Positions 16,086-64,000 of a stretch of DNA of 64,000 nt are shown here, one piece after another. Source of the DNA: Bilabrum cf. latius (taxonomy: Eukaryota); assembly GCA_965178125.1 (NCBI GenBank), contig OZ237751.1, positions 558,001 through 622,000 of the forward strand, in the 5' to 3' direction. The notes below the pieces were generated by a model. That model ran no database searches and was not told where the DNA came from. It was given only the letters and a program-made list of their open reading frames with translations. Position 1 is the first letter of the stretch, and each line of letters begins with the position of its first letter. The position numbers and the translations under genes are program-made.

Positions 16086-16231
16086 ACGAAACGGAAAGGA
16101 CTGTCTTCTCGGTTTCCGTTGGCTCCACCTGTGGATTGCAATGCAGTGCACTTGCAAACCGAATGATGATAAAATGCATAGATCTAGACATCATGTCATA
16201 TTGAAAGCGACTAAACAATCTCAAACAAGTC

Positions 16232-31161: not shown

Positions 31162-34100
31162 ATGTACGGTATTATTGGAATGGTACTAAGTTTAACTGTT
31201 GCTGAAGCTACAGTTCTGGCTGTAGGGAAACTGGAAGCATGCTTATAGAGCGGTGGTAGTACCACGCAGCCTAGCGGTCAAACTGGAGACAGTCTGCAGT
31301 GCTCGTAGAGATTTGTCGTAACCCTATCTGTGCAAAATGGGGAGACTGGGACTGAATCAGTATCATCATACTCGCTTGACAAGGCCTTTGATGAGGATGG
31401 CAGGGAGCTTGATGTTCTAGACGACGTTACAGTCACCTTGAGCAAGTCTGCCATCTCGCTTCGATATCCTCTAATATACGAGCAAGTAAGGATTTACCCC
31501 GGTGTAGTCATAGGAGATTAAAATGTGATGCTATGCGTAGCTCGAACTGCGCTACGAATAACGGAGTCTTGGATGCCGCAGATGATTCTGAACCGAAAAA
31601 CGCCACTATCGCCGACCAACCTTGCCGCTGCACGGGCACTCACCCCAGTCCCCAAACTCAGTTCTACCCGTCCCAATGCAGGATTTTAACTCTCAGCCGT
31701 ATGAATTGATACTAACTAGAGATCAGGACGGCGATCCGTACAGGTGGCCGCTGAACCAGTGCAGAGACGATCCAGACGACACAGCCTCAGCCTGCGGTGT
31801 GATGATTGACTCCAACTCGAACACTGCTGTTCCCTACAGCCATGGATTCTGTTGCAAGTGCAGCCTGCAGGACTACGTGAGCTCCGCATCTTCCATATCG
31901 AGAGCCAACCTCCAGTGCCAGCTCCTGAGCAGCAACGCAGCCCAGGGGGCTCACTGCCTCAGGTTCTCCAAGCTGTGGTACTCAGCGTTCTAGATGCGCG
32001 CGCCGGTCGTAGACTACACGGTCACTGCGCATGTGCAGCGATGCAGGCAGCAGACGGGCGCATCACCCAGCGCTACCAATGCGAATGGGACAGACTCGCC
32101 TCCGAGGCAGTGCACGGAGACAACCGTGTCGCTGGGACCTTCAGTACCAGGGGCCTGCGTAAACCTGCCTGTCGGAGCGGATGATGATGGGGATAATGGA
32201 ATTCCTTGTACGGTACTTGCATCACTAGAGGGCGATTTCGCTGCATTTGAGAGCGCGCCCGACTACGGCAGCAAGTACATGATGATTCCGCTCACCTGCA
32301 ACAGCGCGGCACTCTGCGGCTCCCGGGTGCTCGAGACCTCTGATCGGTGGATGATGGTAGACAAACACGCGGTGACGCTGGATGGCACTACATGCAACAA
32401 GATTGGTGTGTCTCACGAGGCGTTCTACTCCTAGTCGCAGAGGTGCGACAAGTATGCCAACAGCTGCCTTGACAACCAGCTGGAAGACCTCTACCAAGCC
32501 GATCTCGAGAAGGAGACCGAGGGCAAATCCGGGGATTATTTCGTCAAGTTTTAGCAGTATGGAGACAAGTTCAATCCCGAACTTAGGTCCAGCGACACAG
32601 CAGCTGCGGTGTTCCAGACGAATAGGTTCCAGAAGAGCGTGGTGACGCTGATGCTCGATGCTGATTCCATCCGGTGGACCATCAAAGTTAGTCCGGCCTC
32701 AATAACCTAGGCTGAAATCGAAAATTTCGAGGCAATGAGCAGTAGCGGGTACCTTTTGGTCGACGTCCAGAACGATGGCACGGTGGCAGGGACGTACTAC
32801 GTGCAGGTGAACTGCTCCGAGGGCATTGCACCTGTCCCTGCGCAGCCAGTAAGCCTTGCAGAGAGCGGGTCAGCCGGTGACGCTGGTAGCGTGCGATTTT
32901 CAATTTATACCACGAGCACTTTCCAGCAAGCCATGCAGGCATTGGATTAGAGCACGACCGCAAGCAGCTGGTGCCGGGTGACGCTGGTCGATAGCATCTT
33001 CAGGACGATGGACGCGACTCGCATCAACTTCACCGTGTCTCACATGGTGCAGGACAAGGGCACTCAGGGCGGTAATTTGTCCGATGGCGCTCCTACCAAC
33101 AGCACTGGCACTGGCCAAAGCGGTCCGGGGCGGCTGACAAACTCCGCAGAAGAAGGGTGTGCTGGCTGCTTCGCTCTGAATCTTTACTGCCACCTCGCTC
33201 GCTCCTGCTTCGCTCCAATCATGGCAGATGCCGCGGTGCTGCTTGGAATTGCAGCGCTAGGTTTCCTCGCATTCAAGTATCCTTCTCTGCTGTTCTGTCC
33301 GTGCCGTACCCTGTGCGGGTGCCTGTGCTCGGGCGGGGGGGACAGGGACAGCGACAGCTCTGGGTGTTGTGGCCCCAGTAGAAGCAGTGACAGGGGCAGG
33401 AAAGACAGGGGCAGCAAGAAGCGAGAACGGAGAAAACGACGCCGTGGACGTTCAGAGTCTTTGTCATCTTCAGACAGTCGGTCGAGCAGCACCAGCAGCG
33501 GTATCCGAGAACCAGGCGCTGAACCCGCATCTTGCTGCGGATGCTTAGGGTCAGGTGAAACCGTCACTACCAGCAAAACCGCCGAGAGCTAGCGAAAGCG
33601 GCAAGATTACCGTCACAGAACAAGTGGAACTCCTCAAGACAGGGCAAAGCATCGCGGGAATCGCACTCATAGGCGGCGCGCGTCCTCTTTCGACGATTCG
33701 TTTACGCACAAGTCCCGCCCCAAGTGGAGTGATGCACCAAGGATTGAAACTGGTGGAGATCGATTCTAGCAAGAGGTAGGTATGTCATGTTCAAGCGGGA
33801 GAAGGCGAGCGTCGAGTTTCTCCGCAGTCGCGGCCGGACACTGGAGTGGTGGCAAGCTTGGAGCAGCAGCGCCCGTTGCAGCTGCCTTTGGGTGCAGTGC
33901 AAATGGTCGGCATGCGGGTGCTGCTCCTGCGGGTCTCGAGGAGACCATGATGGACTACGCCGGCCATATTGCTTTCAATCAGGAGGATAGAGGAACCGTG
34001 CAGTCCATTGATAGCGATTCTATTGGTTCTGTGGCTGAACCGGCCGAGGTGAGTTGGGGCGGGGTCGGTGGAGGAGGGATTGCCGAGCCCAACGCGGAGA

Positions 34101-34690
34101 AGGGGCCACGCAACGGCAGCAGGACTGGCATTTGGGGGTCAATTGTGGGCGGGCTAGGATTGTGGGGGAGCCAATAGCCATAGGAGTCAGAGCAGCACAA
34201 CCTAGGGGCAGACCGTGACGCATACCGCAAGCGGTGGGCGACGAGGAGGCTGTCCATCCAAGTGAGCCGCACAAACCTCGGGGCAGTGCATCGGAAGAGC
34301 ATACTGCCGCCACGGTAGAACCCCTTGTGGCAGGCAAGGGAAGTTGATATACAAGATCAGGGTGTGCCCGCGCTTGCTGGTTAGACCCGCCGGCTAGCTG
34401 CAGCAAAGGACGAGGTGTCTATGTTCCGCGTCAGGGGGCGGCTGGGTCACGCTAGGCATCTTACCTCTGGAGCCGTGCTTGGGACGCACCGAGCTGGAAT
34501 CGGTACTATGTCGACTTTCTCGCACCAAGTGAACCCTGTAGCAACGGTTCCTTAGATTTTCTCGCGGGAAAGGCATACAAGGATGCCAATGGATCGAGGA
34601 GGGCCAGAGCATTTCGGCCTAGTGTCGAGTAGGCACACCCGTGCAGCGAAGTCTCTAGCCCTCAGCGCAAGGAAAAAGCCGTGGGAATGA
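31162..34690 (+). CDS. HAP2: HAP2/GCS1 gamete membrane fusogen (class II fusexin)
   Basis: Signal peptide MYGIIGMVLSLTVAEA, GKLEAC, LQCS[TAG]RFVVTL, YPLIYEQ|DFNSQPYE (intron 31486-31681), SHGFCCKC, AHCLRFSKLWY, CNKIGVSHEAFYS[TAG]SQRC...SCLDNQL, FEAMSSSG, TM segment and Cys-rich/basic tail; ~15 in-frame TAG; ends TGA TGA. Confidence 0.93.
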
Positions 34691-34792: not shown

Positions 34793-37700
34793 TCAGTCTG
34801 AATCACCTCCGTCAGAGTCTGCGGCGTCCGTGTCTGAGAAGTCGGACCCAGAGTCAGACTCTGAATCGACTGCAATGCGTGAGGACCGCGAACCTCGTGC
34901 TGCATGTTGCCGCGATCTGCGAGGTGCTGCAGATGGCCCAGGGAGGCTCGTGGTCTCAGTCCTCTCCTGCTCCGCCTCGCCTGGGGATCCACCCCTCATG
35001 GCTTCAAGACCTTCACTCCCTGCGGGAGGGGACGCCAACACGCGTGCTCCCATCGTTCGCGGGCGCCTTGGTTCTGGCTACTTGCCTGCGTCCGATGATG
35101 CATCTTGATCTTCGTCTTCGATCGTCCACTCCACGCGTCTGGGCTGCTTGGTACCAGCCGCAACCCTGCCGACGCTGGTACTAGCCATGCCTGTGTCAAT
35201 CGCAGCCGAGGCCAAGCCCGCGCCACCTGCGGCTGCACCATCGAGCGCAAGAGACTTGCTCTTGTTGAACTACCTTACCGCTGTCTTCAGTCCGCCAGGT
35301 GCTGCATACAGCCCGAACAGTGCTGTGCTCTGGTCCCACATCTCTTGCCGGTGAGACACAACTACCACGCTTGTTCCTGACTGCAGCGCGGTTTCTCGCA
35401 GGATCTTTGCCAAGCGGACTACCTTGATCGTGTCTAAAGCTGCATCAATCTCATCCAGGATCAGGAACGATGTGGGAGACGCCGCGTGTAGACCTAGGAA
35501 CAGAGCGATCGTCACGATGGCCTGCTGCCCGCCAGACAGCATCCCAGTGGGCCTCCAGCCGGCGTCGTCTGGCCTGGCTTCGATTCGAAGGCTTCCCGAG
35601 AGTAGGTCTTTCACGTTCGACGAGTATCGCAGCACGGCGTCACCTGTTCCGCCGGTCATCGTCCGGAACACCGTGCGGAGCTTGTCGCTTACAGTCTGCA
35701 TGACCTCCATTAGGCCACGCCGCCGAAGCGCGTCGCACTGCTGTTTCGAGGCGCCGATGGACTGCTGCACCATCTGCAGCTTCTATCGCGTGGATGACAC
35801 CGCATGACCAAATTTGACTCGCTGCATGGTGTCCTCAAGGACACCAGAGGTGGGCTCTTGGGATGTAGACGAGGGTGTCGAGCCTCTGGCTGGTCCGGAT
35901 TCCAGCGCATCACTCAGCTGAGATTCCGTTAAAATGGCACCACTGGATTCAAATGACGACGCAATTCGCCTTTTTGCTAGGCTGCAGAGCCGCGTTCCCT
36001 CGGTTAGGGCCGTCTTGACCTCAGCCTACTGCGGACCAGGGGCTGATGCGACAAGGGCCGCGAGCTGCTTGATTGCGTGCTGGCAGCGGCACATGCAATC
36101 CTCTAGCTTGTCGCTGCTGGCTTCACGACCACCCGCGTCACTGTCATCAAACAGGGACGTGCCGCTCTCCTCTTCGTCAGTGCTCAACTCGGCGGCTACA
36201 CCTTGCCTGGTACTACGCCGAGTGCGCCGCCTGATCGTGTTGGCCGCTCCATCTTTTTCCTCCTCCTCGTCCTCATCCTCGTCAGAGTCAGGGTCAGAAT
36301 CGGATCCCTGCCCGCTGTTGTCGCTGTCACTATCTACAGCATCGACATTCCCGAAATCGTTCTCCTGCTGCTCAAGGGATTGTGCGGATCGTGCCTTGGA
36401 CAGCCAGCGGGCAAGCTTACGGAGACTCGACTCCCAGTTGGACATGAACGTTGAGCACTTCTCGCAATCTCTTGGGAAGCTTAAGTCTTGCACTTCGGAT
36501 GTATTGAGCATGTCAGAGCATGAACCCTTTGATTCAGACCCTTGGACTCCCCTGCAGCGACCGGCACCCGAGGACTGCAGGGCCTCAAGAACAGAGAGCA
36601 CACCGCTCCGAACGTCCTGCCACTGAGCGCGAGTCTCTGTGCGCAGCTGTGCCATGCTGATCTAGATTGCCCTAAGGCTCGCTTGCTGTTGATTCATATT
36701 GGATTGGAGTGCAGAGACTGATTCTGCCGCCTTTTCGCACTCCTTGCGCTGCTGCTTGGCAGCTTCGTCCGCAGCTGTGACCGAATCCTGGTGCTGGCCA
36801 AGAGACTCTTCGATCTTGGCCAGTTGTGTGACCAAGCCCGCAATGCTTTGACGGAGCTTGACAAGTTCTATCTCATGCTTCTTCCTAGCTTCGGTCAGCC
36901 TGTCATTCCTCTTGGAGAGCTGCAGGGCACGGGCATCCAGTTCAATCGCCAGCCTGTCTGACGCATCGACAGCGACACGCAGCTCGCTTGCTTTGCCCTG
37001 AGCCGCACGGTAGGAGCGCAGCAGCTTTGCAATAGCAGCTGACGTGCCATTGGACGCAATCTGTTCACTGGACTCAAGCCTTTGTAGGAGCAGTTGGCAG
37101 GCTTTTCGTCCTGGCCTGACCTTCGATTCGAAGGAATGCCAGCCGCTCATGAATGCATCGAAGTAGCCCTAAAACCTCTTCAACGCATCCTCCTCGCGCC
37201 TGAATGCACGATCACAGCAATGCTGCAGGTGATCAATCTCACGGGCAATGTCTTGCTCGTTCGAATTGGCCTCAGACTCCACTGCTACCAGCCGCTATTC
37301 CTCCGAGACGGCTCGCTAGACCTGATCGGAAGCAGCCTGGTACTCCTTCTGCCTAGCTCCAAGCAACTTTTCCATCGAGTCTAGCTCTTCCATGCTCGTC
37401 TTCAGCTGCGTACGTATCTTGCTAGTGTCCGTAGCATCTGGAATGTCACTCTACTCTCGGAATAGGGGGACATGGATCGCAGCCTGCTTGCCACCGATGA
37501 GCTCCCCAGATGCCCTGACAATCTCACCCTTCAACGTCACGCAGCTCTCACCTGTTGCCCTCCTCACGCTAGACGCGGCCTCAATTGTACTGCACAGCTG
37601 CCACCCGGACAAGAACTTCTGGAGTACTACCTGCGCAGCCTCAGTCTTGCTCTGTACAACGTCGGCTAACGGCGTGCCGCCAGACGCACCGCGTGACCGC

Positions 37701-39688
37701 CCTCGACCAGAGCCGCTTGCACCACCCTTGCGGTAGTCACTCACCACAATGCACTCGAAAGGACCGACACGGGCCGCTTGTGCGCTGCGGAGGAGGGTAG
37801 ATGCCGCCTCCCGAGTCTCCACTAGAACGCACCGTGAGGCTCGCGTTCCGAGCACTGTGTTGACAGCAACCGCGGCGTCGTTCCTCTTCAGAACGCAAGG
37901 TTGCTCCGTTAGGAGGCCGTGCACGTCTTTTGACAAATGCTATTGCAAGAAAGATACATTTCTTTTGTACCAGCCCGGGATGGACGCATCGGAGTCGCCA
38001 CTGCTCTTGTGCAGAATGGCCTTCAGTTGGGAGACATGGGACCGCTTGTGCTGAAGTGATGTCTCTGAGCTCTGCAGAACAGACTATATCGACTGCAGGC
38101 GTCTAGTAGCAGACACGACCAACTTAGATGTCTCCTGGCGCATTGATGCTAGTCTTTGCGCTTCTGCCGCGTATTGCTGCTGTCGTGCCTGCATGCGTCC
38201 CAGCAAGCCTTCCTCGGGCTGCCCGGCCTGGGCCATAGCAGCGTCGCGAAGAGCCGCCACCATTCCCTAGACAGAACGCTACGTGCAATGGGAGAATGCA
38301 TCCCATACGTTTGCATCGGCTGCCACACCAATGGCATCAAGCTCGCGGCCGGCATCTGTGCCTCCCAAGTTCTCAGCCACATGTTCCCAAGTGCGGACCG
38401 CTGCGCTCGATTTGGGGACATGACAGCCCTTAAGTAGGCGTTCTGCTTCTCTAAGATCATTTTTGCCCGCCTTAACTGCTTCCATGGCTTCTAACACGAC
38501 TTGTTGGACCTCGGTTGCAGCTTCGACCGCGCTGACTGCAGCTTGCAGCACAGGCGGGCTAGGTCCGTCGAGCTCACCTCTGTCTGGAGAGATGCCCCGA
38601 GACTCCATCTGACTCTTTAGGTGTTCGCCCGCTTCGACTGCGGCAGTGTACTCCTTCAAATGTGATGAAGCGCCTTCTCTGGCCTCTTTGGCTTGCTTCT
38701 GGAGGGCTGCCAGCTTCTCGATCAGCTGCTCATGCTGCTTCATCGCCCGTGATGACTTGGCTTCAATCCGCTTAATCTCAATCGATTTGACATCTTTGTC
38801 GGATTTTAGCGCTTCGACGCGTGCCTCTGCTTTCCGCTGCTTCTGCTGTGACTGAACGACTGCCTTCTTGGCTTCCTACGCGGAGGCCCGAACGGCAAGC
38901 AGATGCTCGCTGGCTGCGGCATGCTGCATCTGCAACGAGCGCAGCTCAGTCTAACCGCTCTTCGACTTGTCGGTAAGCTTCTTCATTGAATCTGACGCAT
39001 CCTGATCGCGCTTTTCCATCGCAGAAACGCTCGACCGAGCAGCCTTGCATGCTAGGGTAAGGGCATGCACCGCCTGTTGGGCGGAACCGACCAGCTCGTC
39101 CGTGCCGTCCACCGCAGAATCGACTGCCTCAGAGGAGAGGAGGCCAGAGCTTGAAAGGGCCCCCAGTAAAATGCCCATTTCCTTACTCCTGTTCCTGAGA
39201 TCCACTCCAACAGTCGCTCTCTCGATGATGTCGGCCAGCCCACCAGCATCTGCGAGCAGCGTCCGGCCTGCGGCCACCTCGTGCTAGGTCACAACAGAGC
39301 GTTTCATTGTTGCCATTACGTCGCAGTCCACTAGCTCGGACATTTGTTTGACAAATGCTGATCTTGACGCGAGTTCTCCGTCGATGGCATAACTAGAAAT
39401 GCACTTTCCGTCGCTAGTTTTCCTGAGCTGGCGGGACACTTCAATGGACTCATCCCCTTGCTAGAAGTGCACAGAGCAACAAGCTACACTACTCTTATTA
39501 TTGATTTGTGAAGAATTTCCTCGAATTCCCTGCAAACACCACTACAGGGCTTCAATGAGGCAACTCTTTCCGAGACCGTTCGCACCAACGATCGACGTCA
39601 GCGATCTGGGACTGAAATCAATGTGAACTTTATCCTTAATGCCCTTGAACCCTTCAACCTCAACAGATTTTATTTGAAGGGCGGACAT
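34793..39688 (-). CDS. Divergent SMC-family ATPase (~1631 aa, apparently single exon)
   Basis: IKSVEVEGFKG, IVGANGLGKS (Walker A), VVT[TAG]HEV (Q-loop), coiled coils, hinge-like VHGLL...AVNTVLG...VLVET, LSGGQQ signature, FLILDEIDAALD, VVVSH; ~18 in-frame TAG in one frame; ends TGA. Confidence 0.88.
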
Positions 39689-39863
39689 TCTCCGATTAGA
39701 TTGAAATGACTCAAAGTGTGCGATGAGCAGAAGGTGACCACAATCAAGCAGCTGCTCCGAGTCGATCCGATCCCTCTGGTCGCATCGCATGATCTTGCAG
39801 GGACACGGGCCACCTCCAAACACAAGCACTAAATGTATGCACCAGATATACATCCGTCCATGA

Positions 39864-42800
39864 TCAGCGCAATTCCATGCTAAATCTCCACTGGTACGAG
39901 CCGTGCAAGGTGCCCTCCTCGGCGCCTGCAAACGGCATCCAGAAGATGTAGTTGGTGCTCCACGCGTTGTCAACCAGAATCACGTTCGCCTCTGCGGTGC
40001 CCTGACCACCGGATGACAGCGGGGTAGGGTACGGCGAAGCTGGTCCAAACTTCACGACGCCTGCGTCCGGAACGAGCACGGTTAGGTTCCCCTTGCTCGC
40101 CTGCTCGGCGCTCCCCTGAAACCGGATGGCGTCCCCAACGGCCTGTACTGCCGTGCCGCCCCACGCAACACCGTCGCCAGCGTTTTGCCAGCGGCCGAGC
40201 TTCCGGATGGACCACGCCGACAGCTTCTCTTTCAGAGCCGAGACGTCTTGCAGCACGGGGGGCTTCCGCATCCCGACCCTGCACCCCCTCTCCTTGCAGG
40301 TCCCCAGCATCTCCAGCGTCTCTGGGTCTTCGAAGGCCTCGTAGTAGGGATTCGCATCATAGGGAGACTGGAAGTGATGGACAGAGCGGGAGCCGTAGTT
40401 CTTCGAGTGGTGGTGACCCGCCCTCGTGCTGTTGCCACCGGCCGCAGCTCGCGTGCCAATCGGCGGGTGGGCGAGCGTCCTTGCCGCCCACAGCCTCTCC
40501 ATGGGATGCACCGGGTTTAATGAGCTGATCGACTTGGCCAGAGAGGCCACCTTGCCTGCCTATGCACTAGCAAGGGGAGAACGGCTGCTTGGCTGAGTGG
40601 CTTCCTTCCCTTCGGCGGCGGCAGCAGCTGATGCTCGCTTCATGGCGTCACGAATGGCGCCGGGGCGCAGGTACTCGGGTCCGTGTGGCGAGTGCGCGTG
40701 CGTGTGAGGATGCTCCGTAGCGTGGTCTCCATCTTGCGAAGGATTCTCGTGATCGTGACCCGCGTGCAGCCTCCTGCCGTCGCCCTTGCCGCTGCCGCCG
40801 CTCGCCGCCTCCTTGGGGCCGTCAGCTCCGAGTGGGAGCATGCTCATGTATGCCCCTTCCAGCATGCGCGTGCTGGTTTTGTTCCAGAACTGGCACGTCA
40901 CGTTGACGACAACGTTGGGCGGGCCTCCCTGCGCCTTCTGCTCCTCTTCCCCCCTTGACAGGAAGCCGGTCGCGGCCTGGCTGCCGGGGCCCACTGACAG
41001 CACGGTCCAGACCTCCTCCGGCCCGCCGTAGTTCACGTGCAGCCTGTCGTCATCGAATGCCTGCCGCAGCACGATCGCGGTGATGTTCACACCGGCGGCA
41101 TTCGGCCCCGTCCTGCTCCAGGCCTGCAATACCCTGGGGGACGCGAGGGTGTAGTTCGGGTTTGCCTCCTCAATGCCGTACTTGCCGTATGTGTTGTTGG
41201 CCCAGCTCCTGTCGGTCATGTAGTACAGGTACTGGTCGATGAAGTCGGTGTAGTTGACGGCATTGAGCGTCTGGTACCGCACCCTGGCAAGCTGCTCGTC
41301 GGTTGATGCCCAGTTCCTGCTTCCTCCTGACGAGGAGTGGTCGATCAGCCGCGTGATGCCGCCTGTTGCCACGTCGATGCTGAGGCTGGCAAGCCCGCCA
41401 GCGATGCCGTTGAGCTTAATCTGCCCGTCCTCGCTCTCGGCACCAGGCACGGGGAGGGGACTGTACCCGGCAGTGCTGGGCATCTTGGGCCGCTGATCCT
41501 CCACGTCAGCTTCGATCCTCTGACGCAGGGAGGAGGACTCTGGCAGCGCGGACAGCGGGTAATCGTAGGCCCACTTGCGCTGGATGGTCCACGAGAGCGG
41601 GTTGGTGTGGAGCTCCTTGGCACCTGCCTGCACCTCCCTGTGGAAATCGACGTTGCTCCAGTTGGTCGACCGAAAGTCCCCCAGATTGCCTCCAGACACA
41701 CCCCAAGTGTGCTCGGATGCCTTCATTAGCAGCCTCGAGAAGTTGTAGAAGGGGCTGCTCGCGGGGGAGGGTGCCAGCTCGCCATCTACAGAGCTGGGGT
41801 AGGCGCACTCTTGTTCCCCGGCAGCGACGCATTGTTCCCTGATTCGCTGGGTGCTACGCATGCGCATGGTCTTTACCGGGTCGCTGGGCACTCCCATCAC
41901 CCACGTGTCTCCGATTTCCGCCGTGACGAGCGGCACGTTCTGCTTGGCGCCCGCTGCGATGGCGTGCGTCGTGAAATTGTCGAGGGTGCTTACGACCACC
42001 TGTGCCCCAGGGAACCAGCCCTGCACCTCCTCGAAGTCGCCGAGCACCTCCTTCGTCGACTCTGCCGGTCCGTGATTGTCATTGCGCCAGGCGTATACCA
42101 GAACGTGAGGACACCCGGGGATCTGCAGGTAGTCTCGCGCTGGAGGCGCCCCGCCCTTGCCGCCCGACATCTGCTCGATGTGACCTCCGTGCAGTTGGCG
42201 GTGCATTGCACTGCCGTGCTGCTGCTAATGCTGTCGATGCTGTTGATGCTGATGTTGGTGCTGGTGCTTTGCTCGCATCGCTCGTCGCTGCCCGAAGCCC
42301 GCCTTGTGGATGAGCTCGCTGGCGGTGCTGCCATCCGAGGGAAGCATGCCGTAGCCGAGGGCATGCCACATGACGAGCTGCTCCGTGCCTGTGGCATCAT
42401 CCCTCCACACGAAGGCCGGGGGCACGTTCGGTGGGTGCATTGCACTGTTGCTCCCCTCGCTCAGAGCCCTCACCCCGACCTCTGCTAGGAGCGGTACGGC
42501 GGCCCGGGGGAATCCTGGGACGTCTCGCTGGGACAGCACCGTGGGCAGGTCAATGCCGATTCTCTTGGCCAGGTCCCTGGTCATGTTAACTCCGAATTGC
42601 AGCAGCGAGGGTTCGAGAACCTCCAGCTCCCCGTTGTGTGGGAAGGCGTGCAGCTGCACGTAGCCCTTCCGGAGGGCATCCTTGTACTGAGCGATCTGAG
42701 AGGCGTTGGGACACAGCACGCCGTCTTGCTCGTATCCGATGGGACAGCTGTCCATCATGCTGGTGAGGAAAGAGTGGGAGAGCCACTGCAGCCGCTTTCC

Positions 42801-55312: not shown

Positions 55313-57777
55313 ATGATTGGTCTACTTGATGCATGCTTATTAGTGCTGCCATTTGTGGTCACGTTTGTGTACTTGTTCTGCAGTCCTGGAACCAAGGTGG
55401 AAGAAAGTTTCAATCTGCAGGCAACTCATGATATCATTTACCACGGCTTCGATCTCGATTCAGTGAGAAACTCCATACCACAATGTGTCTTACCTATTGT
55501 TATATCAGCAACACTAGAATTTCTGCGACCAACCCTTCTTTTTTTATGCAGTATGATCACTTGGAGTTTCCAGGTGTGGTACCGCGAACATTTCTTGGGC
55601 CGATCGCCTTGGCTGTACTTGCCAAGCCCATTCAAACAGTGCTTAGTTTTATCGGAGATGAGATTGCCGAGAAGGCACTGATGCAGCTTGTGGTCCGGGT
55701 GCTGCTTGGCGGCTTGGTATGCATGGCTATTGCTCGGCTGGCATTGTCCGTAAGGCGCACGATGGGTGCTATAGCCATGCGCACGATGCTGCTAGGAGTC
55801 TGCTGTACGTTTCACTTCTGTTTTTACGCGTCGCGGCCGCTGCCAAACACGTTCGCGACCGTGCTGATGACGTACGCGGCTTCGATCTACCTGGACACAC
55901 GAGGAGCAAAAGGAGCCGGCTGGACAGGAGAGTGGGTGGTGCAGCTCGGGTGCCTCGTGGCTGCCGCTGGTCTATTCCGGTGCGACATGATCATGCTCGC
56001 AGTTCCCATGCTCCTGATGCAGCTGCTCAGAGGAAGGGTACAGCTGGTGCCCCTCATTGCTTGGGGGCTCCTCCTCTCGGCTGGGCTGGTCGGCTTGAGC
56101 GTTGCCGTCGACTCGTTCTTCTGGCGACGATGGCTCTGGCCTGAGGGGGAGGTCTTCTTCTTCAACGCGATCCTAGACAAATCGAGCCAGTGGGGTGTGT
56201 CACCGTGGCACTGGTACGGGACACACGCCCTTCCAAAAGGAGCGATGGTTTGGTTCCCACTGGCTGTCGCCGCACCGATCGCTGGGACGGTGGCTCGATC
56301 TCTGTTGTGCTGCTGCTACCGGAGGCAGCGCACCGAAGGAGCCAAAATGCTTCGTGGTGATGCCGCAAAGAGTGATGCATCTGGAGGGCCCGGGGTCATC
56401 GGGACCTGGGTCAGCTTGCCGCTCGAGTCGTCCTTGTCATCGGGCCTGCAAGCACTCGGGATCGACCTGGGTGAAGGATTGCTTGATGCGTGGTTTCCGG
56501 CTGTGTTCTTCGTATTGCTATACAGTCGGCTGCCTCACAAAGAGCTGAGATTTCTGCTGCCTGCCTTCCCTCTGGTCTTCGCCTCGGCCGGCGCTGCTGT
56601 AGGAGCGGTGCTGGGCGAGACATCGACCATGTGGGCTGCGAGACAAGCGCTGGATATTTCGTTAGACGGTCCGGCTGACAGCAAGAAATCAGACACCAAC
56701 TCTATCGAGCACGAACAGGGCAAGGGGCAGACGGTAACGGACAAGGATACCTCTGGCGGCAATTCGACATCGGATTCGAAGGACACTCAAGAGTTGCGGA
56801 GGCGTCGCCGCAAAGCAGCAAGTAAGGAAGAAAGCGTCGATGAACCGGCCAAAAATCCAATGAATGCACCTGCTGTAGATAGCGGTGCGGGCTCGAGTCG
56901 AGCACTGCTGGGGACTCGATTAGCCACTCGCCCAGAAGCATCCTTTGCCTTGCGAGCCACTGCGACTGCAGGACTAGCGTTCTGCTCGCTGATTGCAGCG
57001 TCGCTGTCCGTTGGAGTGTTCCTGCAAGCAGCAAAACAGAATTACCCCGGGTATGACGCCATGAGATGGGTCGACCGAAATTGCGGTTTCTTGGCAGCAG
57101 CTGCTCTGCGAGGTGCCGGGTTCTCAAGGCAAGCGAAATTGACCGGCGAACTGCCCGGATGGGTAGTGCATGCTGGCTAGAATGATGACAGTGAGATGAG
57201 TGGTATTTCTATCCAGTTGCATGTTGATGTTGCATCTGCCGAGCAGGGCGTGAGTCGATTTCTCGAGCCGAGACTTGGGTTCGTGTGCGTTGCGATCGGC
57301 GGCAGCGACTCTCCTCGGGTGCATGACGGTGATTTAATCGACTGGCTTGGAGCATCGGGCGTGGCTGCGGCAAGGCGTGCCACTGCCTGTACGCAGACGG
57401 AGAATGGCAGGAGCGCAGCCCAGGTGCTTCGGGTGCCGGTTCGGCTTGACATCAATAAGACGGAGGGGCTCGGTGCCGCCGAAATGGGCGGATTTGGGGC
57501 AGCGCTGCACTCGGTCTAGTCCAAGACGGTGCGGAAACGGAGGGGGCGCGAGCTAGAGGAGGGCAAGATCGCAAGCTGGCGGCCAGTAAAGCGATTCTCT
57601 AGATTTGACCGAATGCAATTTTCATCATTTGGTGAGCTGCGGTCCATTTGGGCCGGCTTGGCGACCGCTGCACTGCCTGGTGACGGCTCGTTGGCCGGAG
57701 GACTTCGAGCTGTGCTCGCTGCTGTGCTGCCGCGCGCGATTGCGAGGCCTGAGCTGGCTGTGAGCGTCCCGGAGTAA
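55313..57777 (+). CDS. ALG12: Dol-P-Man alpha-1,6-mannosyltransferase ALG12 (GT22)
   Basis: [16 protein letters not shown]...[16 protein letters not shown] (intron ~55463-55551), [15 protein letters not shown]...[38 protein letters not shown] at 57178 and 57517; ends TAA. Confidence 0.93.
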
Positions 57778-57938
57778 TATTAAGTCGTGGATCTAATTCA
57801 CAGATCACTAGCTGCTCATCCAATACGGTTTCGTTTAACTTGCCGTTACGCCGTCGAACCTGCTTTTTACCCTCTTGAAGCAACGTGCCTTGCACTAAAA
57901 GCCACATTCTCTAAGCAAGTCCCACTCCGATCCAGCTC

Positions 57939-58393
57939 TCACGTCTTCACTCCCGGGTGATACCGTGCCATGTGTGCCTTCAGGAGTGTCTTACTCGTGG
58001 TCTCATGCCCGCACTCCGAGCACCGATGCATCACGCCCAGATGCATCGCCCGCACGTGCCGCGTCACATGGCCCCTCTGCACATCCACATACTCGCAGCC
58101 AGGGCAGCACCACACAGGACGGTCACGCGCGTGCTGCTGCATGTGTTGCCGGAGATTGCCAGGCTGCGACGCCCGCACTGGACACGTGGATCCGCCAGGC
58201 AGCTGCAGTCCGCACGCGTAGTATCCTCCCGTGTGCTTGCGCTGGTGTCTGGCGCTGTTGTCCTTGGCATCGCCCTTCCTCCCCGCATGTGTGGGCTTGA
58301 GGCAGTCCGCGCACAGGGCCGTCCACGGCTTGGCGCTGCGTCGGGGGTCCTTGGCGGGCCCGGCCATGGCCTGGCGGTGCATGGCGGCGTGTC
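57939..58393 (-). pseudogene. 5'-truncated copy (or alternative 3' cassette) of the C2H2 zinc-finger exon
   Basis: Four fingers, open frame and TGA at the same position as in the 61368 gene; upstream similarity ends abruptly at ~58393. Confidence 0.55.
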
Positions 58394-59952
58394 TTGAACC
58401 TAGACTACAGATCAGATTTGTTCCTTCAACCACACCCATTGGCGCGTCTTCACGGCTGCTGCAAATCCCACTGGTTGGCAGTTACCAAAAAGAAAAATTC
58501 CTGCCCCCGGTCCCGCGGACCCACTGGGCTTCACCCCGAACGACTGGTTCTTCAGCGGTCCACCTGAATGCGGTATTCATCTGACACTACGAATGTACAC
58601 ACCACTTTCCCCATGCACCCGACTGGCCTTGTCGCCACATGGCTTCCTGTTCCTGTTCCCCGCCCTAGGGACCGTGTGCTTTGCTCCCAGCATCGCCACC
58701 TTGGCCCTATCCTTTCAGCTTGCACGCGCCGGTCCTGGCCGACCTGCCGTGCGCCCCATCTGTCCACCCACCTGTTGGCCTTCTGCGTGCTGCTGGCCAT
58801 GCAGTCCGCTGCCACCCGCGTCTCCCTCGTGCCTTGCACCTGGAGCCCCCATTCCTCCCGTTGTGTTCTCCCTGTTGACACCGCACTGTCGTCGCCTGTG
58901 CCGGTGTCCCCCTCTTCTTCTCCACCTCCTGTCCTCCCACCTCGTCTTCCGTCTCACCTCTGCTCCCCGTTGCTTCAATCCTGATGTCCGAGTACATATA
59001 ACAGGATCTGACGTGTGCCCGCAGCTGGTGTATGTGTGGGAAGGTGGTGTTGCACTCGGGGGCGTGGCAGGACCGGAGGGCGGGGGCCAGTGTGGATGTG
59101 CTGCTGTGATCGTTGCCTTGATCGGAGTGTGGCACGATCCACGTCTTGGTGGCAGTGGCGATGCGGGGCTGCATATCATCGATGGCGGCGTCGATGATGG
59201 GCGTTGTGCAGGTATCGCGGGCGAGCTGCTGCGGTGTGAGGCTTGTGCGGGGCTGCCATGGGATGCAGAAGAAAACTTCCTGCCCCCGGTCCCGCGGACC
59301 CACTGGGCTTCACCCCGAAGGACTGGTTCTTCAGCGGTCCACCTGAATGCGGTATTCATCTGACACTACGAATGTACACACCACTTTCCCCATGCACCCG
59401 ACTGGCCTCGTCGCCACATGGCTTCCTGTTCCTGTTCCCCGCCCTAGGGACCGTGTGCTTTGCTCCCAGCATCGCCACCTTGGCCCTATCCTTTCAGCTT
59501 GCACGCGCCGGTCCTGGCCGACCTGCCGTGCGCCCCATCTGTCCACCCACCTGTTGGCCTTCTGCGTGCTGCTGGCCATGCAGTCCGCTGCCACCCGCGT
59601 CTCCCTCGTGCCTTGCACCTGGAGCCCCCATTCCTCCCGTTGTGTTCTCCCTGTTGACACCGCACTGTCGTCGCCTGTGCCGGTGTCCCCCTCTTCTTCT
59701 CCACCTCCTGTCCTCCCACCTCGTCTTCCGTCTCACCTCTGCTCCCCGTTGCTTCAATCCTGATGTCCGAGTACATATAACAGCTTCCTAGTGTGATGGA
59801 CAATTGGACTACACGAGATGATTGCGATGCTCTTTGTGGGTGATTGCGTGTATGCTAGCTGGCTATGGATAGCACACGATACTCGCTTGCAATCCAATCG
59901 CCTCCCATGATTGGGCCTCATTCTCTCCACAAGTCCCACTCCGATCCAGCTC

Positions 59953-60672
59953 TCACGTCTTCACTCCCGGGTGACACTGTGCCATGTGCGCCTTCAGGTA
60001 TGTCTTCCTCGTGGTCTCATGCCCGCACTCTGAGCACCGATGCATCACGCCCAGATGCATCGCCCGCACGTGCTGCCTCACGTTGGCCCTGTTCACATCC
60101 ACATACTCGCAGCCAGGGCAGCACCACACAGGACGGTCACGCGCGTGCTGCTGCATGTGGCGCCGGAGATTGCCAGGCTCCGACTTCCGCACTGGACACG
60201 TGGATCCGTCAGGTAGCTGCAGTCCGCACGCGTAGTGTCCTCCCGTGTGCTTGCGCTGGTGTCTGGCGCTGTTGTCCTTGGCATGGCCCTTCCTCCCCGC
60301 ATGTGTGGGCTTGAGGCAGTCCGCGCACAGGGCCGTCCACGGCTTGGCGCTGCGTCGGGGGTCCTCGGCGGGCCCGGCCATGGCCTGGCGGTACATGGCG
60401 GCGTGCCTGGATCTGACGTGTGCCCGCAGCTGGTGTATGTGTGGGAAGGTGGTGTTGCACTCGGGGGCGTGGCAGGACCTGAGGGCGGGGGCCAGTGTGG
60501 ATGTGCTGCTGTGATCGTTGCCTTGATCCGAGTGTGGCACGATCCACGTCTTGGTGGCAGTGGCGATGCGGGGCTGCATATCGTCGATGGCGGCGTCGAT
60601 GATGGGCGTTGTGCAGGCATCGCGAGCGAGCTGCTGAGGTGTGAGGCTTGTGCGGGGCTGCCATGGGATGCA
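59953..60672 (-). pseudogene. Second 5'-truncated copy (or alternative 3' cassette) of the C2H2 zinc-finger exon
   Basis: Five fingers, open frame, TGA at the homologous site; upstream replaced by unrelated repeat modules. Confidence 0.55.
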
Positions 60673-61367
60673 ATGATGCTTCCTAGTGTGATGAACAGTC
60701 GGACTACACGAGATGATTGCGATGCTTATTGTGGTTGATTGCGTGTATGCTAGCTGCATATGGATAGCACACGATACTCGCTTTGAACCAAGAAAAATTC
60801 CTGCCCCCGGTCCCGCGGACCCACTGGGCTTCACCCCGAACGACTGGTTCTTCACCGGTCCACCTGAATGCGGTATTCATCTGACACTACGAATGTACAC
60901 ACCACTTTCCCCATGCACCCGACTGGCCTCGTCGCCACATGGCTTCCTGTTCCTGTTCCCCGCCCTAGGGACCGTGTGCTTTGCTCCCAGCATCGCCACC
61001 TTGGCCCTATCCTTTCAGCTTGCACGCGCCGGTCCTGGCCGACCTGCCGTGCGCCCCATCTGTCCACCCACCTGTTGGCCTTCTGCGTGCTGCTGGCCAT
61101 GCAGTCCGCTGCCACCCGCGTCTCCCTCGTGCCTTGCACCTGGAGCCCCCATTCCTCCCGTTGTGTTCTCCCTGTTGACACCGCACTGTCGTCGCCTGTG
61201 CCGGTGTCCCCCTCTTCTTCTCCACCTCCTGTCCTCCCGCCTCGTCTTCCGTCTCACCTCTGCTCCCCGTTGCTTCAATCCTGATGTCCGAGTACATATA
61301 ACAGCAATCCATTCGCCTCCCATAATTGGGCCTCATTCTCTCCACAAGTCCCACTCCGATCCAGCTC

Positions 61368-64000
61368 TCACGTCTTCACTCCCGGGTGACACTGTGCCAT
61401 GTGCGCCTTCAGGTATGTCTTCCTCGTGGTCTCATGCCCGCACTCTGAGCACCGATGCATCACGCCCAGATGCATCGCGCGGACGTGCCGCCTCACAACG
61501 CCCCTCTGCACATCCACATACTCGCAGCCAGGGCAGCACCACACAGGACGGTCACGCGCGTGCTGCTGCATGTGTTGCCGGAGATTGCCAGGCTGCGACG
61601 CCCGCACTGGACACGTGGATCCGTCAGGTAGCTGCAGTCCGCACGCGTAGTATCCTCCCGTGTGCTTGCGCTGGTGGCTGGCGCTGTGTTGCTTGGCATG
61701 GGCCTTCGTCCCCGCATGTGTGGGCTTGAGGCAGTCCGCGCACAGGGCCGTCCACGGCTTGGCGCTGCGTCGGGGGTCCTTGGCGGGCCCGGCCATGGCC
61801 TGGCGGTGCATGGCGGCGTGTCTGGATCTGACGTGTGCCCGCAGCTGGTGTATGTGTGGGAAGGTGGTGTTGCACTCGGGGGCGTGGCAGGACCTGAGGG
61901 CGGGGGCCAGTGTGGATGTGGTGCTGTGATCGTTGCCTTGATCCGAGTGTGGCACGATCCACGTCTTGGTGGCAGTGGCGATGCGGGGCTGCATATCGTC
62001 GATGGCGGCGTCGATGATGGGCGTTGTGCAGGCATCACGAGCGAGCTGCTGCGGTGTGAGGCTTGTGCGGGGCTGCCATGTGATGCTGTCCAACATGCCA
62101 GCGTCAGCGTCAGCTCGAGCACGCATAGAGATGCTTGTAGGTGCAGTAACCCGGCCTCGTCGCTGCGGCTTGCGAGCCGGGACCAGGCTCTGGGGCATGT
62201 AGTCAGGTATGTCGTTGACTTCAATCCCATCCGACGCGTCACAGTCGCCGTCCGACTCGCACGAGCCTGGCTCGCTGACGACCACATCATCCATTGAATG
62301 TGCTCCATGAGCCGCGTCGTCCTTTGCCTGAATGCGTGCTTCAAAGCTCCTGTATCCGGAGTCAGAGCTATCGTCCCCAGCATCACTGCTGCTGCTGCTG
62401 CTGTTGGATCTGGAACTTGCGATGGACGCTCCGTCCTCGCCGCTTGATGAGACCTCCTCATCCGAGAAACCAGAACGCATACCAGCACGATTGATGCGGG
62501 ATTCGCTTGCCGCAGATGAGTCAGATTGTGAAGTCCATCCCGAATCAGAAGCAGACGACACCTCCGAGGACTCAGACGAGGCGTCTCGACGCCATTGTTT
62601 GCCACGCCCCCGAGTTGTGCCATCGTGAAATCGACCGAGCTGCTTGCTCATTGCCACACTCTCAGCTAGCTTCACCAGCTTGCAAGCGGTGTGTTCTCTT
62701 TCTGAAATAGCAGATGCCCCCATCGGAAGGCTTGGCGTGCTACTTGCATCGGGCCCTTCACGCTCCGAAGTGGATCTCATCCACCGATCGATTGCTTTGC
62801 CAGGCGACACCGACCCATGCCGAAGCTGTCGCACAATGCGCCTGCGCCGCTTGAAGTACTTGAAGAGGCCTTCATCACGATCTTGAATGGCTGTGTGAAA
62901 GTCAAGCGAAGGTATTGGCCAATCACTGGGATCATCACCTTCCCTGTTGCATGGCTCTACCGAAAGCGATCGGAATCTTGCTACTGCACTTGCCGTCCTG
63001 TCTGTGCTTCGCTCAAACCCCACTCCGAGATACCCCTTAGTCTGGACGTTGATGCCATGCAGAAGAGTTGGATGGCTGTCTAAAGATACTACATGATGGG
63101 TCGTAGATCTAGAGTCATGATCCGATACCCACAGCTAGCTCAGCGCAGAGCGACAAGCTGTGGCCCAGTCCAATCGAGCCCTATCCTATGACCGACTCCC
63201 TGACTTTTCAGAGTTGGGTTGTGCGTCACATGGATTGCATGGATCCGAGGGCTCGTTAAGCATGCTATATTCAGAACCACCAGCTGAAGGCTGCTATCTC
63301 GCTGCATGGAAAAGTGCACCGAGCGGCTAGTCGTACCTTGTTGACGGCTTAAGATCACTAGACTCGGACCGTTGCTCCTTGAGCAGCACGTCCAGCCAGT
63401 GCACACCATTCAGCTCAATGCTCAGGCTGGCTTCATCGTTGCGGTACACCGCCCGCCTGAGCTTCTGGTATTGCGACAGTGCAGTGCAGAGAATGTCGAC
63501 GGCTAGGAGACGCGCAACGACGTCCTGAATGCGATCAATACTGCCACCATTCGCATGGCTTGTAGCATGTTTACGTCTGTGCAACAATAGCTAAGCTGCT
63601 GATAGTGCACCTATGGATTGCAATTGCTGTCGCCAAGGCATCAGCTCCCCGTCCTGCCATTCCTCGACCCCATCAGGCACAAGAGCTGATGAAGACCTGA
63701 CGAACCACTCTATCTGCTGCCTCGACGCAAAACGCACGTGTACGAATACAAGCCGCTAGACTCTACTGTTTTGCATTGACTGGGTAACCTCATCCGGAGC
63801 ATAGAAGCCAAGCTGGTGCTTGGCCAGGCAGCCACGAATGGCCGAGCAGACCTTCTTCTTCCACCAGTTGGCCGACGAGCTGGGCCGAAGCAGCGTGCTC
63901 AGTAGCTGAGCCGTCGACTACTTTGGCTCAGCTGTTATGATGCGACCATTATCAAGTTCAGTCAACAGCGCGGTAGATCGAACCGCTTGCCACATGCTGG
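61368..64000 (-). CDS. Protein with C-terminal five-finger C2H2 zinc-finger array (5' end beyond window)
   Basis: CHAPEC...H...H, CADC...HQRKHTG, C...C...HMQQH, CPGC...HVRAMH, CSEC...HMAQCH; with TAG as sense the frame stays open from 64000 to TGA at 61368 (~7 TAG between 63135 and 63920). Confidence 0.8.

Follow-up and report, generated by a model that had tools for sequence, protein, structure and literature searches.

Concentration of differences at base-contacting positions among three local copies of a C2H2 zinc finger cassette points to diversifying selection

Diversification of the base-contacting residues of C2H2 zinc fingers is held to be metazoan, chiefly vertebrate, in those parts of the literature that are drawn on here. 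In the sections of Emerson and Thomas (2009; PMC2604467) concerned, vertebrate KRAB zinc finger (KRAB-ZF) expansions display positive selection at helix positions -1, 3, and 6 and less of it at positions 2 and 5, and the fly and mosquito expansions are without such a signal. Similarly, the relevant part of Najafabadi et al. (2017; PMC5588721) describes the motifs of non-metazoan C2H2 proteins as evolving slowly. The literature searched contained no report of contact-residue diversification in a protist. The locus described below lies in a 64-kb window, i.e. the whole stretch of 64,000 nucleotides analysed.

Three copies of a C2H2 cassette were present on the minus strand, each with 152 alignable codons and an identical ending (...HPGVKT-TGA; Table 1). 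The cassettes were 94-96% identical to one another, none contained a stop or frameshift, and no further cassette copy was found in the 64-kb window. The upstream contexts of the three copies were all different. Read with the standard code, the open reading frame (ORF) of gene C spanned 551 codons (61368-63023), which became 876 codons, still open at the window end, when its seven TAG codons were read as sense. Copy B lacked the N-terminal part of gene C, a loss of at least 560 residues if TAG is sense, and the first in-frame ATG of its ORF was located in its own segment J; this copy may be, or may formerly have been, expressed on its own. The junction between segments J and N was intact in copy B, unlike in copy A. 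The first-pass annotation had assumed a different setting; the cassettes are indeed duplicates, but two of the three are N-terminally truncated, one of these being interrupted by a repeat, only gene C is long, and the copies are mosaic. All three share a start directly before ...WQPRTSL, which in copies A and B is preceded by a pyrimidine-rich stretch ending in CAG. The copies are best read as young local duplicates of the DNA-binding domain of a transcription factor.

Table 1. Coordinates of the features of the three-copy locus, in window positions
Feature	Position	Strand	Remarks
Z_A, cassette of copy A	57939-58394	-	F2-F5 and TGA stop
Repeat, third and longest copy	58395-59003	-	'I' plus 95 bp 'x', ~610 bp
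N_A, upstream half of copy A	59004-59267	-	Contains F1; separated from its cassette by the repeat
Repeat 'I', second copy	59269-59783	-	Insertion separating J from N in copy A
J of copy A	59783-59888	-	
Copy B	59953-60876	-	ORF of 307 codons, stop to stop; upstream side bounded by TGA or TAA; F1-F5
Z_B	59956-60411	-	59953-60411 including the stop
N_B	60409-60672	-	
J of copy B	60678-60783	-	106 bp; shares 92% identity with its counterpart in copy A
Repeat 'I'	60790-61304	-	515 bp; between the 3' flank of gene C and J of copy B
Gene C	61368-63998	-	Sole long copy; ends in TGA
Z_C	61371-61826	-	152 codons; 61368-61826 including the stop
F5 of Z_C	61386-61451	-	
F4 of Z_C	61470-61535	-	
F3 of Z_C	61560-61643	-	
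F2 of Z_C	61662-61742	-	
F1 of gene C	61818-61889	-	Within N_C
N_C	61824-62087	-	Upstream segment common to the copies

In this genome, TAG is a sense codon, most likely for glutamine, TAA and TGA remaining stops. With TAG as sense, 16 long ORFs tiled the window and whole Pfam domains fell within single ORFs, indicating that introns are seemingly rare here. A nuclear code with TAG as sense and TAA and TGA as stops is of a rare type, according to the relevant part of Panek et al. (2017), and every gene model in the genome depends on it. The earlier expectation that the N-terminus of the protein lies beyond position 64000 fits, solely because of this sense reading of TAG. The window also held HAP2, flagellar SHIPPO repeats, and an ALG9-like neighbour, and the non-standard code, together with HAP2 and the SHIPPO repeats, makes an origin in a protist plausible, as supposed earlier. 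Rfam and tRNA scans of the window yielded nothing. The long N-terminal part of gene C contained a Ser/Asp/Glu-rich stretch and no recognised domain. A Pfam search of its 551- and 876-residue readings within the window retrieved finger families only, and no KRAB, SCAN, BTB, SET, or other effector domain; even with E allowed to reach 0.1, SET had no match in the 876 residues inside the window, which ends before the N-terminus of the protein.

The five fingers (F1-F5) were heterogeneous, with linkers that merely resembled TGEKP (HTGGYYAC, HARDRPVWC, and HLGVMHRC), and none of their 20 zinc ligands varied among the copies in which they occur. The ligand spacing canonical for C2H2 fingers (Pfam PF00096, PF13909, and PF13465), Cys-x2-4-Cys-x12-His-x3-5-His, was found in F1 (x4, x12, x4) and in F4 and F5 (x2, x12, x4). 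F2 (C-x2-C-x18-H-x3-H) and F3 (C-x9-C-x12-H-x3-H) deviated from it, so that the canonical contact map may fail there. For the register, position +7 was assigned to the first His in every finger, and solved DNA-binding arrays served as a check. F2-F5 were in register with those of Aart (2i13; E 5.9e-8), HIC2, and CTCF, and a phmmer search of solved chains returned 23 C2H2 proteins at E <= 1e-3, Aart being the best. Pfam matched zf-H2C2_5 and zf-C2H2 on F4 and F5, with zf-H2C2_5 scores of 33.6 (A), 26.5 (C), and 24.1 (B) bits against a curated cut-off of 27, and zf-C2H2 scores of 25.0, 23.2, and 14.8 bits over the three copies against a cut-off of 25.2. An AlphaFold model from a three-row alignment (mean pLDDT 56.9) placed helices where expected for F1, F2, F3, and F5, that of F2 beginning four residues early; F4 (pLDDT below 50) was drawn as strands, and parts of F5 were also below 50. 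The fingers of gene C presumably bind DNA.

The differences among the three cassettes were concentrated at the base-contacting positions, as the first-pass annotation had observed by hand. All variants that it quoted were reproduced (AKDNSARH/AKQHSASH, SQPGNLRQH/SEPGNLRRH, VQRGHVTRH/VNRANVRQH/VQRGVVRRH, and TSKTLLKAH/TRKTYLKAH). Among the 152 codons, 22 carried an amino acid change and seven were synonymous only, one of the latter (codon 1 of copy A) falling outside the homology. Helix positions -1, 2, 3, and 6 of F2-F5, i.e. 16 of the 152 positions, accounted for 11 of the 22 variable residues (hypergeometric P = 1.2e-7). The excess persisted when F2 was excluded (8/14 variable residues at 12 contact positions out of 97, P = 8e-6) and when F1 and segment N were added (11/24 on 20 contact positions in 236 codons, P = 1.0e-7), and inside the helices the contact positions held 11 of the 12 variable residues (P = 0.0018). 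Three of the four fingers varied at each of positions -1, +3, and +6, two at +2, one at +5, and none at +1 or +4. The contact residues of F1 did not differ among the copies.

Each copy contributed to this divergence, contact changes between copy pairs numbering 3-8. Changes specific to gene C clustered in F2 (codons 40, 42, 46, 47, and 50), so that the intact copy has its own contact changes at positions 2, 3, and 6 of this finger; those specific to copy B clustered in F3 and F4, and those of copy A affected F4 and F5, mainly the latter, together with the 3' flank. Position +3 of F4 displayed three states in three copies (H/N/V). As also noted earlier, several changes involved more than one nucleotide, namely two or three in each of six codons (46, 76, 84, 107, 110, and 138), five of which were contact codons. 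In segment N, by comparison, six changed codons were synonymous and four non-synonymous. The mutation spectrum was mixed, with transitions (15) as well as transversions (20) of every kind, which ruled out RIP-like or adenine-targeted hypermutation.

The rate estimates were consistent with this distribution. Tree totals by the Nei-Gojobori method gave a pN of 0.43 at contact positions versus an overall pS of 0.08, a ratio of 0.61 at non-contact positions, and an omega of ~1.0 over all codons. A maximum likelihood codon model, with a contact/non-contact partition fixed a priori and three sequences only, yielded for the 152 codons an omega of 6.5 at contacts and 0.40 elsewhere, estimates to be read with the six multi-nucleotide codons in mind, as such changes inflate omega in standard models. 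A single omega was rejected (2dlnL 45.2), and so was a contact omega of 1 (2dlnL 18.2, P = 1.9e-5). For the 236 codons covering all five fingers, omega was 4.3 at contact codons (above 1, P = 1.8e-4) and 0.28 at non-contact codons (below 1, P = 0.0017). Counting each changed codon once, as a guard against multi-nucleotide changes, left at least 12 events versus 3.6 expected (P = 3.4e-4). A single tree for all sites is a simplification for mosaic copies, in which imported tracts could mimic bursts of substitution. Taken together, the excess at contact positions, the contact omega above 1, and the conserved scaffold make selection for a changed DNA specificity the best reading, in agreement with what had been proposed before the codon-aligned dN/dS analysis. 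The pattern of substitutions thus probably reflects diversifying selection for base specificity, accompanied by gene conversion among young local duplicates; the new specificities might serve against transposons or in recombination, as the first-pass annotation proposed.

The three copies are mosaic, with runs resembling gene conversion tracts (P ~5e-4). Lineage-specific sites were arranged in runs (BACAAACABBBCCACCCCBAABBBBBBBB*CBABCCAAAAAAAAAAA; P = 0.00045 for B-C and P = 0.0007 for A-C by permutation), their lineage differed by region (chi-square P = 0.0025), and copies B and C were identical over the last 149 nt, 3' flank included. In addition, the read runs X1 and X3 each gave one A-like cassette contig at 2-3 times depth, which suggests that the copies are homogeneous in these other strains; conversion would then be strong, with a divergence possibly confined to the present strain. 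These runs, this homogenisation elsewhere, and the cassettes being less alike than the copies of the inserted repeat (99.2-99.4% identical) would also be expected if unseen alleles or paralogues had donated the variant helices in short tracts, the pattern then reflecting the diversity of a donor pool. This explanation is considered unlikely, as a run of eight B-specific sites (codons 76-109) contained no synonymous change and the read depth of N and Z was just ~2-3 times single copy at >=88% likeness, so that a large donor pool is not evident; nor did the window hold other copies. Moreover, a donor pool variable at contacts only would itself need diversifying selection, which would be relocated rather than removed.

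Decay of dead duplicates is much less probable. If copies A and B were pseudogene fragments, neutral drift would have acted on structurally unconstrained surface residues, in line with the missing N-terminal part of copy B, the in-frame TAA in the repeat that splits copy A, and the overall omega. However, drift allows an omega of at most 1 for any site class, whereas that of the contact codons was 4.3-6.5, with 1 rejected. The constraint on non-contact codons and on segment N, the open cassettes, and the contact changes of the intact gene C also argue against it. A slimmer chance still is given to the idea that the partial copies form a store of alternative DNA-reading cassettes, exchanging segments with the full-length gene by conversion, as in the logic of silent-copy systems for surface antigens. 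If true, a single transcription factor could have its base specificity switched by the locus, possibly in answer to the invading high-copy repeat.

It is even more doubtful that the assembly placed allelic or strain variants of a single gene as false tandem copies. A repeat of high copy number crowds the locus and makes assembly difficult, and of the words sampled from the stretch the best read sets contained just 0.65-0.70. Yet the N-terminal part of gene C had single-copy read depth across 62051-63100, and, relative to this depth, the cassette contigs stood at 3.0 times in X1 and 2.2 times in X3, those of N being likewise at 2-3 times. Furthermore, read contigs bridged two junctions of copy B without difference (Z_B|J in X1 record 6 and N_B|J in X3 record 12), and the three copies occupy distinct upstream contexts. 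Contig cover in X1 and X3 was absent over 60101-60277 and 61517-61693, and such holes prove nothing. Least probable of all, splicing of the upstream part of gene C to N_B-Z_B or N_A-Z_A, giving isoforms that differ in DNA specificity, would make use of the shared start and of the pyrimidine-rich stretch with CAG ahead of it in copies A and B, but introns seem rare in this window.

The repeat itself was read at 100-250 times the depth of its flanks, and contigs of its other genomic copies diverged from the locus at 58394 and ~59008. Its longest copy interrupts the cassette of copy A precisely at the boundary of codons 1 and 2 and is readable in frame except for one TAA (58482-58484). A terminal inverted repeat, a target-site duplication, and a coding match were sought for 'I' and not found. 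The idea of a dinoflagellate, raised by a faint likeness of the repeat end to a spliced-leader relic, was rejected, as a leader motif had no match at <=3 mismatches and a shorter piece had one match versus 1.5 expected by chance.

In the libraries searched, a single, distant relative of the whole cassette was retrieved, namely P0003 (279 amino acids, C-terminus cut), which was 45% identical across 188 residues (E 6e-48). This protein matched the cassette in F1-F5 order, in the odd spacings of F2 and F3, and in the linkers; its differences were dispersed along the full length, its N-terminus was unrelated, and it added a fourth state (S) at position +3 of F4. P0003 had the majority state at 9 of the 16 variable sites compared, indicating that most B-specific and C-specific states are derived. 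Word-index searches with the full protein, the cassette, and P0003 found only P0003, and a metagenome scan gave 592 pattern matches, none of which was confirmed.

Under diversifying selection with gene conversion, the history of the locus may be outlined as follows. Gene C would encode a sequence-specific DNA-binding protein in which a long N-terminal part precedes five C2H2 fingers at the C-terminus. The 3' part of the gene (N with F1 and Z with F2-F5) would have been duplicated twice, directly downstream, after which the zinc-binding scaffold would have been kept while the base-reading helix positions -1, 2, 3, and 6 were driven apart, gene conversion among the copies producing the mosaics. 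Later, the high-copy repeat would have been inserted three times in the locus, splitting copy A. This tiny but clean case, from an orphan finger family in an unrelated eukaryote, would show that evolution of this mode can arise wherever a finger cassette is duplicated, and the three natural variants offer directly measurable motifs.

The label 'PRDM9/KZFP-like' given in the first reading holds for the evolutionary mode, by analogy, and not for the protein, as neither an effector domain in the 876 in-window residues nor a finger minisatellite was found (Tandem Repeats Finder, no rows for 56000-64000). Like the KRAB-ZF expansions, as far as PMC2604467 describes them in the sections concerned, the locus consists of recent local duplicates with a conserved scaffold and linkers and short conversion tracts among paralogues. 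Unlike them, it lacks KRAB, SCAN, and BTB within the window, comprises three copies only, two of them partial, and has five mutually dissimilar fingers, two with unusual spacing, instead of a long, TGEKP-linked canonical array; moreover, its host is a non-metazoan-like eukaryote with TAG as sense. As in PRDM9, the base-contact positions are hypervariable on a conserved finger scaffold, but no PR/SET domain was seen in the window, there is no minisatellite of near-identical units, and the variation is between gene copies rather than repeat units or alleles. Finally, a short finger array at the end of a protein with no other recognised domain is shared with the non-metazoan C2H2 factors, as treated in the relevant part of PMC5588721, whereas, in contrast with the slow evolution given there, the base-contacting residues are here the fastest-evolving part.

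The zinc-finger locus consists of three neighbouring minus-strand C2H2 modules (copies A, B and C, gene C being the sole long copy), the ORFs of which share an identical terminus, ...HPGVKT followed by TGA. Self-comparison and a hand-checked alignment delineated a 152-codon cassette with fingers F2 to F5 (Z), a shared upstream segment with finger F1 (N), a unique N-terminal part of C (U), a segment present in B and A (J), and three copies of a high-copy repeat (repeat I), the longest of which contains an extra 95 nt (x). Identities among the copies amounted to 99.2-99.4% for repeat I, 94-96% for Z, 97-98% for N, and 92% for J, and the remaining 57 kb of the window contained no additional copy of the cassette or of repeat I. 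In copy A, a single reading frame (57939-59309, minus strand) runs through N_A, the inserted repeat, and Z_A, with a TAA (58482-58484) as sole true stop; the inserted repeat carries three TAG codons in this frame. A candidate GT...AG pair, spotted by eye, would splice out most of the insert in frame. An ALG9-like mannosyltransferase ORF (55432-57774, plus strand), which lengthens from 565 to 781 codons with TAG as sense and ends with TAA, adjoins the locus; only about 160 bp separate its end from the stop codon of the oppositely oriented cassette A.

Features of the zinc-finger locus, listed 5' to 3' on the minus strand, followed by other features of the window
Feature	Position	Strand	Basis or remark
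U, unique N-terminal part	63023-62088	-	extent per standard code
N_C	62087-61824	-	self-comparison and alignment
Z_C and 64 nt of 3' flank	61823-61304	-	self-comparison and alignment
Repeat I (flank of C / J of B)	61304-60790	-	self-comparison and alignment
J (copy B)	60783-60678	-	self-comparison and alignment
N_B	60672-60409	-	self-comparison and alignment
Z_B and flank	60405-59889	-	self-comparison and alignment
J (copy A)	59888-59783	-	self-comparison and alignment
Repeat I (between J and N_A)	59783-59269	-	self-comparison and alignment
N_A	59267-59004	-	self-comparison and alignment
Repeat I and 95 nt x (between N_A and Z_A)	59003-58395	-	self-comparison and alignment
Z_A	58394-57901	-	self-comparison and alignment
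SHIPPO flagellar repeats	13899-16190		
HAP2-GCS1 gamete fusogen gene, 12 TAG	31592-34687	+	Pfam, E 4.9e-92
SMC-type ATPase gene, 18 TAG, spanned by SMC_N, adjoining the HAP2-GCS1 gene	34796-39979	-	Pfam
Example TAG sites	24855-24857 (+); 40562, 42227 (-); 53975 (+)		

Read depths and bridging contigs showed that the duplication is real. Contigs of four read runs were placed on the window, an approach that cannot prove absence. The N-terminal part of C was single copy, with a depth of 91.6 in run X1 and 42.2 in run X3; a 377-nt contig over cassette codons 2-127 (58018-58394) reached 275.6 and 91.5, i.e. 3.0 and 2.2 times single-copy. The latter contig is A-like apart from codons 66 and 68 (also 43 in X3), where it has the B/C state; the two runs belong to one study. 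In addition, a contig of segment N had a depth of 98.9 in X3, and the junctions of J with Z_B and with N_B were each spanned by contigs. A contig of run X6 is identical to C over codons 92-142, indicating that C-type F4 is present elsewhere. There are hints that other strains have copies with no differences over F2-F4, and the divergence observed in the window may accordingly be young or particular to this strain.

Repeat I turned out to be a discrete dispersed element of approximately 610 bp, given a read depth of 100-250 times single-copy over the four runs, many variant contigs, and the departure of contigs from other loci from the window sequence at 58394 and about 59008. Its three copies, about 515-610 bp long, are all oriented alike in a 3-kb interval and were inserted between flank and J, between J and N, and between codons 1 and 2 of the cassette, each site being clean when compared with the paralogous junction. 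None of the three copies had a target-site duplication, and no terminal inverted repeat was found. Divergence among them is roughly one-tenth of that at synonymous sites in the surrounding cassettes. The first codon of Z_A is non-homologous, the true codon 1 lying where N_A ends; this lowers the number of codons in Z with synonymous change only from seven to six.

The reading of these frames depends on the genetic code: in this genome TAG encodes an amino acid, and TGA and TAA still act as stops. Among the 27 in-frame stops with at least 120 open codons on each side, 20 were TAG, seven TGA, and none TAA, although overall TGA was the most frequent of the three triplets (1773 TGA, 982 TAG, and 455 TAA). 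With TAG as sense, the longest ORF grew from 764 to 1760 codons and 16 ORFs tiled the window, containing 105 TAG (6.7 per 1000 codons); no comparable lengthening of the longest ORFs occurred with TGA or TAA as sense. The 15 tile ends inside the window were TGA (12) or TAA (three), with more stops soon after. Likewise, Pfam domains became whole, Sulfate_transp covering profile positions 12-380 instead of 97-380 and Vps53_N reaching 4e-79. TAG most likely codes for glutamine, judging from aligned homologues; the first TAG site of the sulfate permease corresponds to Gln in all five solved homologues shown, and the second to Gln in four and Glu in one. One TAG of a Brr2/ASCC3-like helicase falls within a gap-free alignment, in a variable column. 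No suppressor tRNA was found in the window. Codes that reassign UAG alone are rare, according to PMC5304391. With TAG as sense, gene C spans at least 876 codons and continues past the window end, with no further Pfam domain in this 876-codon reading; copy A and copy B (307 codons) are bounded by TGA or TAA and so remain short. TAG is absent from every cassette. The G+C content is approximately 58%, and the source is probably a eukaryote that is flagellated and sexual and has a compact genome with few introns.

Within the cassette, F2 follows C-x2-C-x18-H-x3-H, F3 follows C-x9-C-x12-H-x3-H, and F4 and F5 follow C-x2-C-x12-H-x4-H; F1, in N, follows C-x4-C-x12-H-x4-H. Pfam matched zf-H2C2_5, zf-C2H2, and a double-domain linker model, with scores at or just below the cut-offs. 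Comparison with solved chains (phmmer) placed F2-F5 in register with the arrays of Aart, HIC2, and CTCF, which fixes the helix numbering with the first His at +7. AlphaFold, run with only three aligned rows, predicted F1 and F2 confidently (pLDDT 78-90) and helices at F1, F2, F3, and F5, and failed on F4. For changes at -1, 3, and 6 such as Q>E, Q>R, R>Q, N>H, R>S, and V/H/N, textbook recognition rules would in each case predict a shift in the preferred base of the triplet.

The first-pass annotation had claimed that the cassette copies differ mainly at the DNA-contact positions (helix -1, 2, 3, and 6), several changes being multi-nucleotide. All variants that it quoted were retrieved in the codon table of the three copies, six codons indeed carry multi-nucleotide changes, and 11 of the 22 variable residues occupy the 16 contact positions among 152 (P = 1.2e-7). 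Hence, in a sample of three sequences, two of them partial, the contact-position excess is real and far beyond chance. It persisted when F2 was left out (8/14 variable residues on 12/97 positions, P = 8e-6), when the 3' third was left out (P = 1.2e-6), and when F1 and N were included (11/24 on 20/236 positions, P = 1.0e-7). Inside the helices, contact positions accounted for 11 of the 12 variable residues (P = 0.0018): positions -1, +3, and +6 vary in three of the four fingers each and +2 in two, against none for +1 and +4 and one for +5, indicating that variation tracks the helix face turned towards the DNA rather than the helix in its entirety.

The overall dN/dS of approximately 1.0 hides two site classes. 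Nei-Gojobori tree sums gave a contact pN of 0.43, an overall pS of 0.08, and a non-contact ratio of 0.61. A codon model with a fixed site partition (F3x4 frequencies; three branches; kappa and synonymous rate in common) estimated omega over the 152 codons at 6.5 for contact codons versus 0.40 elsewhere, rejecting a single omega (2dlnL 45.2) as well as a contact omega of 1 (2dlnL 18.2, P = 1.9e-5). Over 236 codons and five fingers, the values were 4.3 versus 0.28, and omega = 1 was rejected for both contact (P = 1.8e-4) and non-contact codons (P = 0.0017). The dN/dS above 1 at contact sites that the suggested diversification called for was thus recovered (4.3-6.5) in this three-sequence model. 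Because six codons carry multi-nucleotide changes, each changed codon was also counted once, which left no fewer than 12 events where 3.6 would be expected if omega = 1 (P = 3.4e-4). In N alone, six changed codons were synonymous and four non-synonymous, two of the latter at the homology edge. These rate classes indicate a scaffold constrained in all copies and an accelerated reading surface, a combination that decay of dead copies cannot yield.

Gene conversion seems to have acted as well. Lineage-specific sites cluster, those of C in F2, those of B in F3 and F4, and those of A in F4, F5, and the 3' flank, and this clustering exceeds chance (GENECONV-style permutation, P = 0.00045 for B-C and 0.0007 for A-C). 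The last 149 nt are identical in B and C, synonymous and non-coding sites included, a tract for which conversion or a more recent shared origin is the most plausible reading. The cassette family is nearly orphan: among the best 150 of 4536 HMMER hits, one relative (P0003) was the sole one-stretch match across the cassette (45% identity over 188 residues, with shared finger order and odd spacings), the others being generic multi-finger proteins. Where B or C differs from the other two copies, P0003 mostly agrees with the majority, so that most B-specific and C-specific states look derived. The eight consecutive B-specific sites in F3 and F4 are all non-synonymous, which, together with the conversion-like clustering, indicates that conversion and selection are both active, as in other tandem families.

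This locus is best explained, with moderate confidence, by diversifying selection on putative DNA-reading residues in concert with gene conversion between its young local duplicates. A literature search, judged by its result entries, returned no protist case of such contact-residue diversification. According to Najafabadi et al. (PMC5588721), non-metazoan C2H2 motifs evolve slowly and their base-contacting residues are constrained; the present locus behaves in the opposite way. It rather shares its evolutionary mode with the vertebrate poly-ZF and KRAB-ZF expansions, for which PMC2604467 describes conversion tracts together with positive selection that acts on helix positions -1, 3, and 6 and to a lesser extent on 2 and 5. 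The mode resembles that of PRDM9 too. The initial PRDM9/KZFP-like label therefore holds for the mode of evolution but not for family identity, as the locus departs from both the KRAB-ZF and PRDM9 families in effector domains, judged on the 876 in-window residues of gene C, and in array structure.
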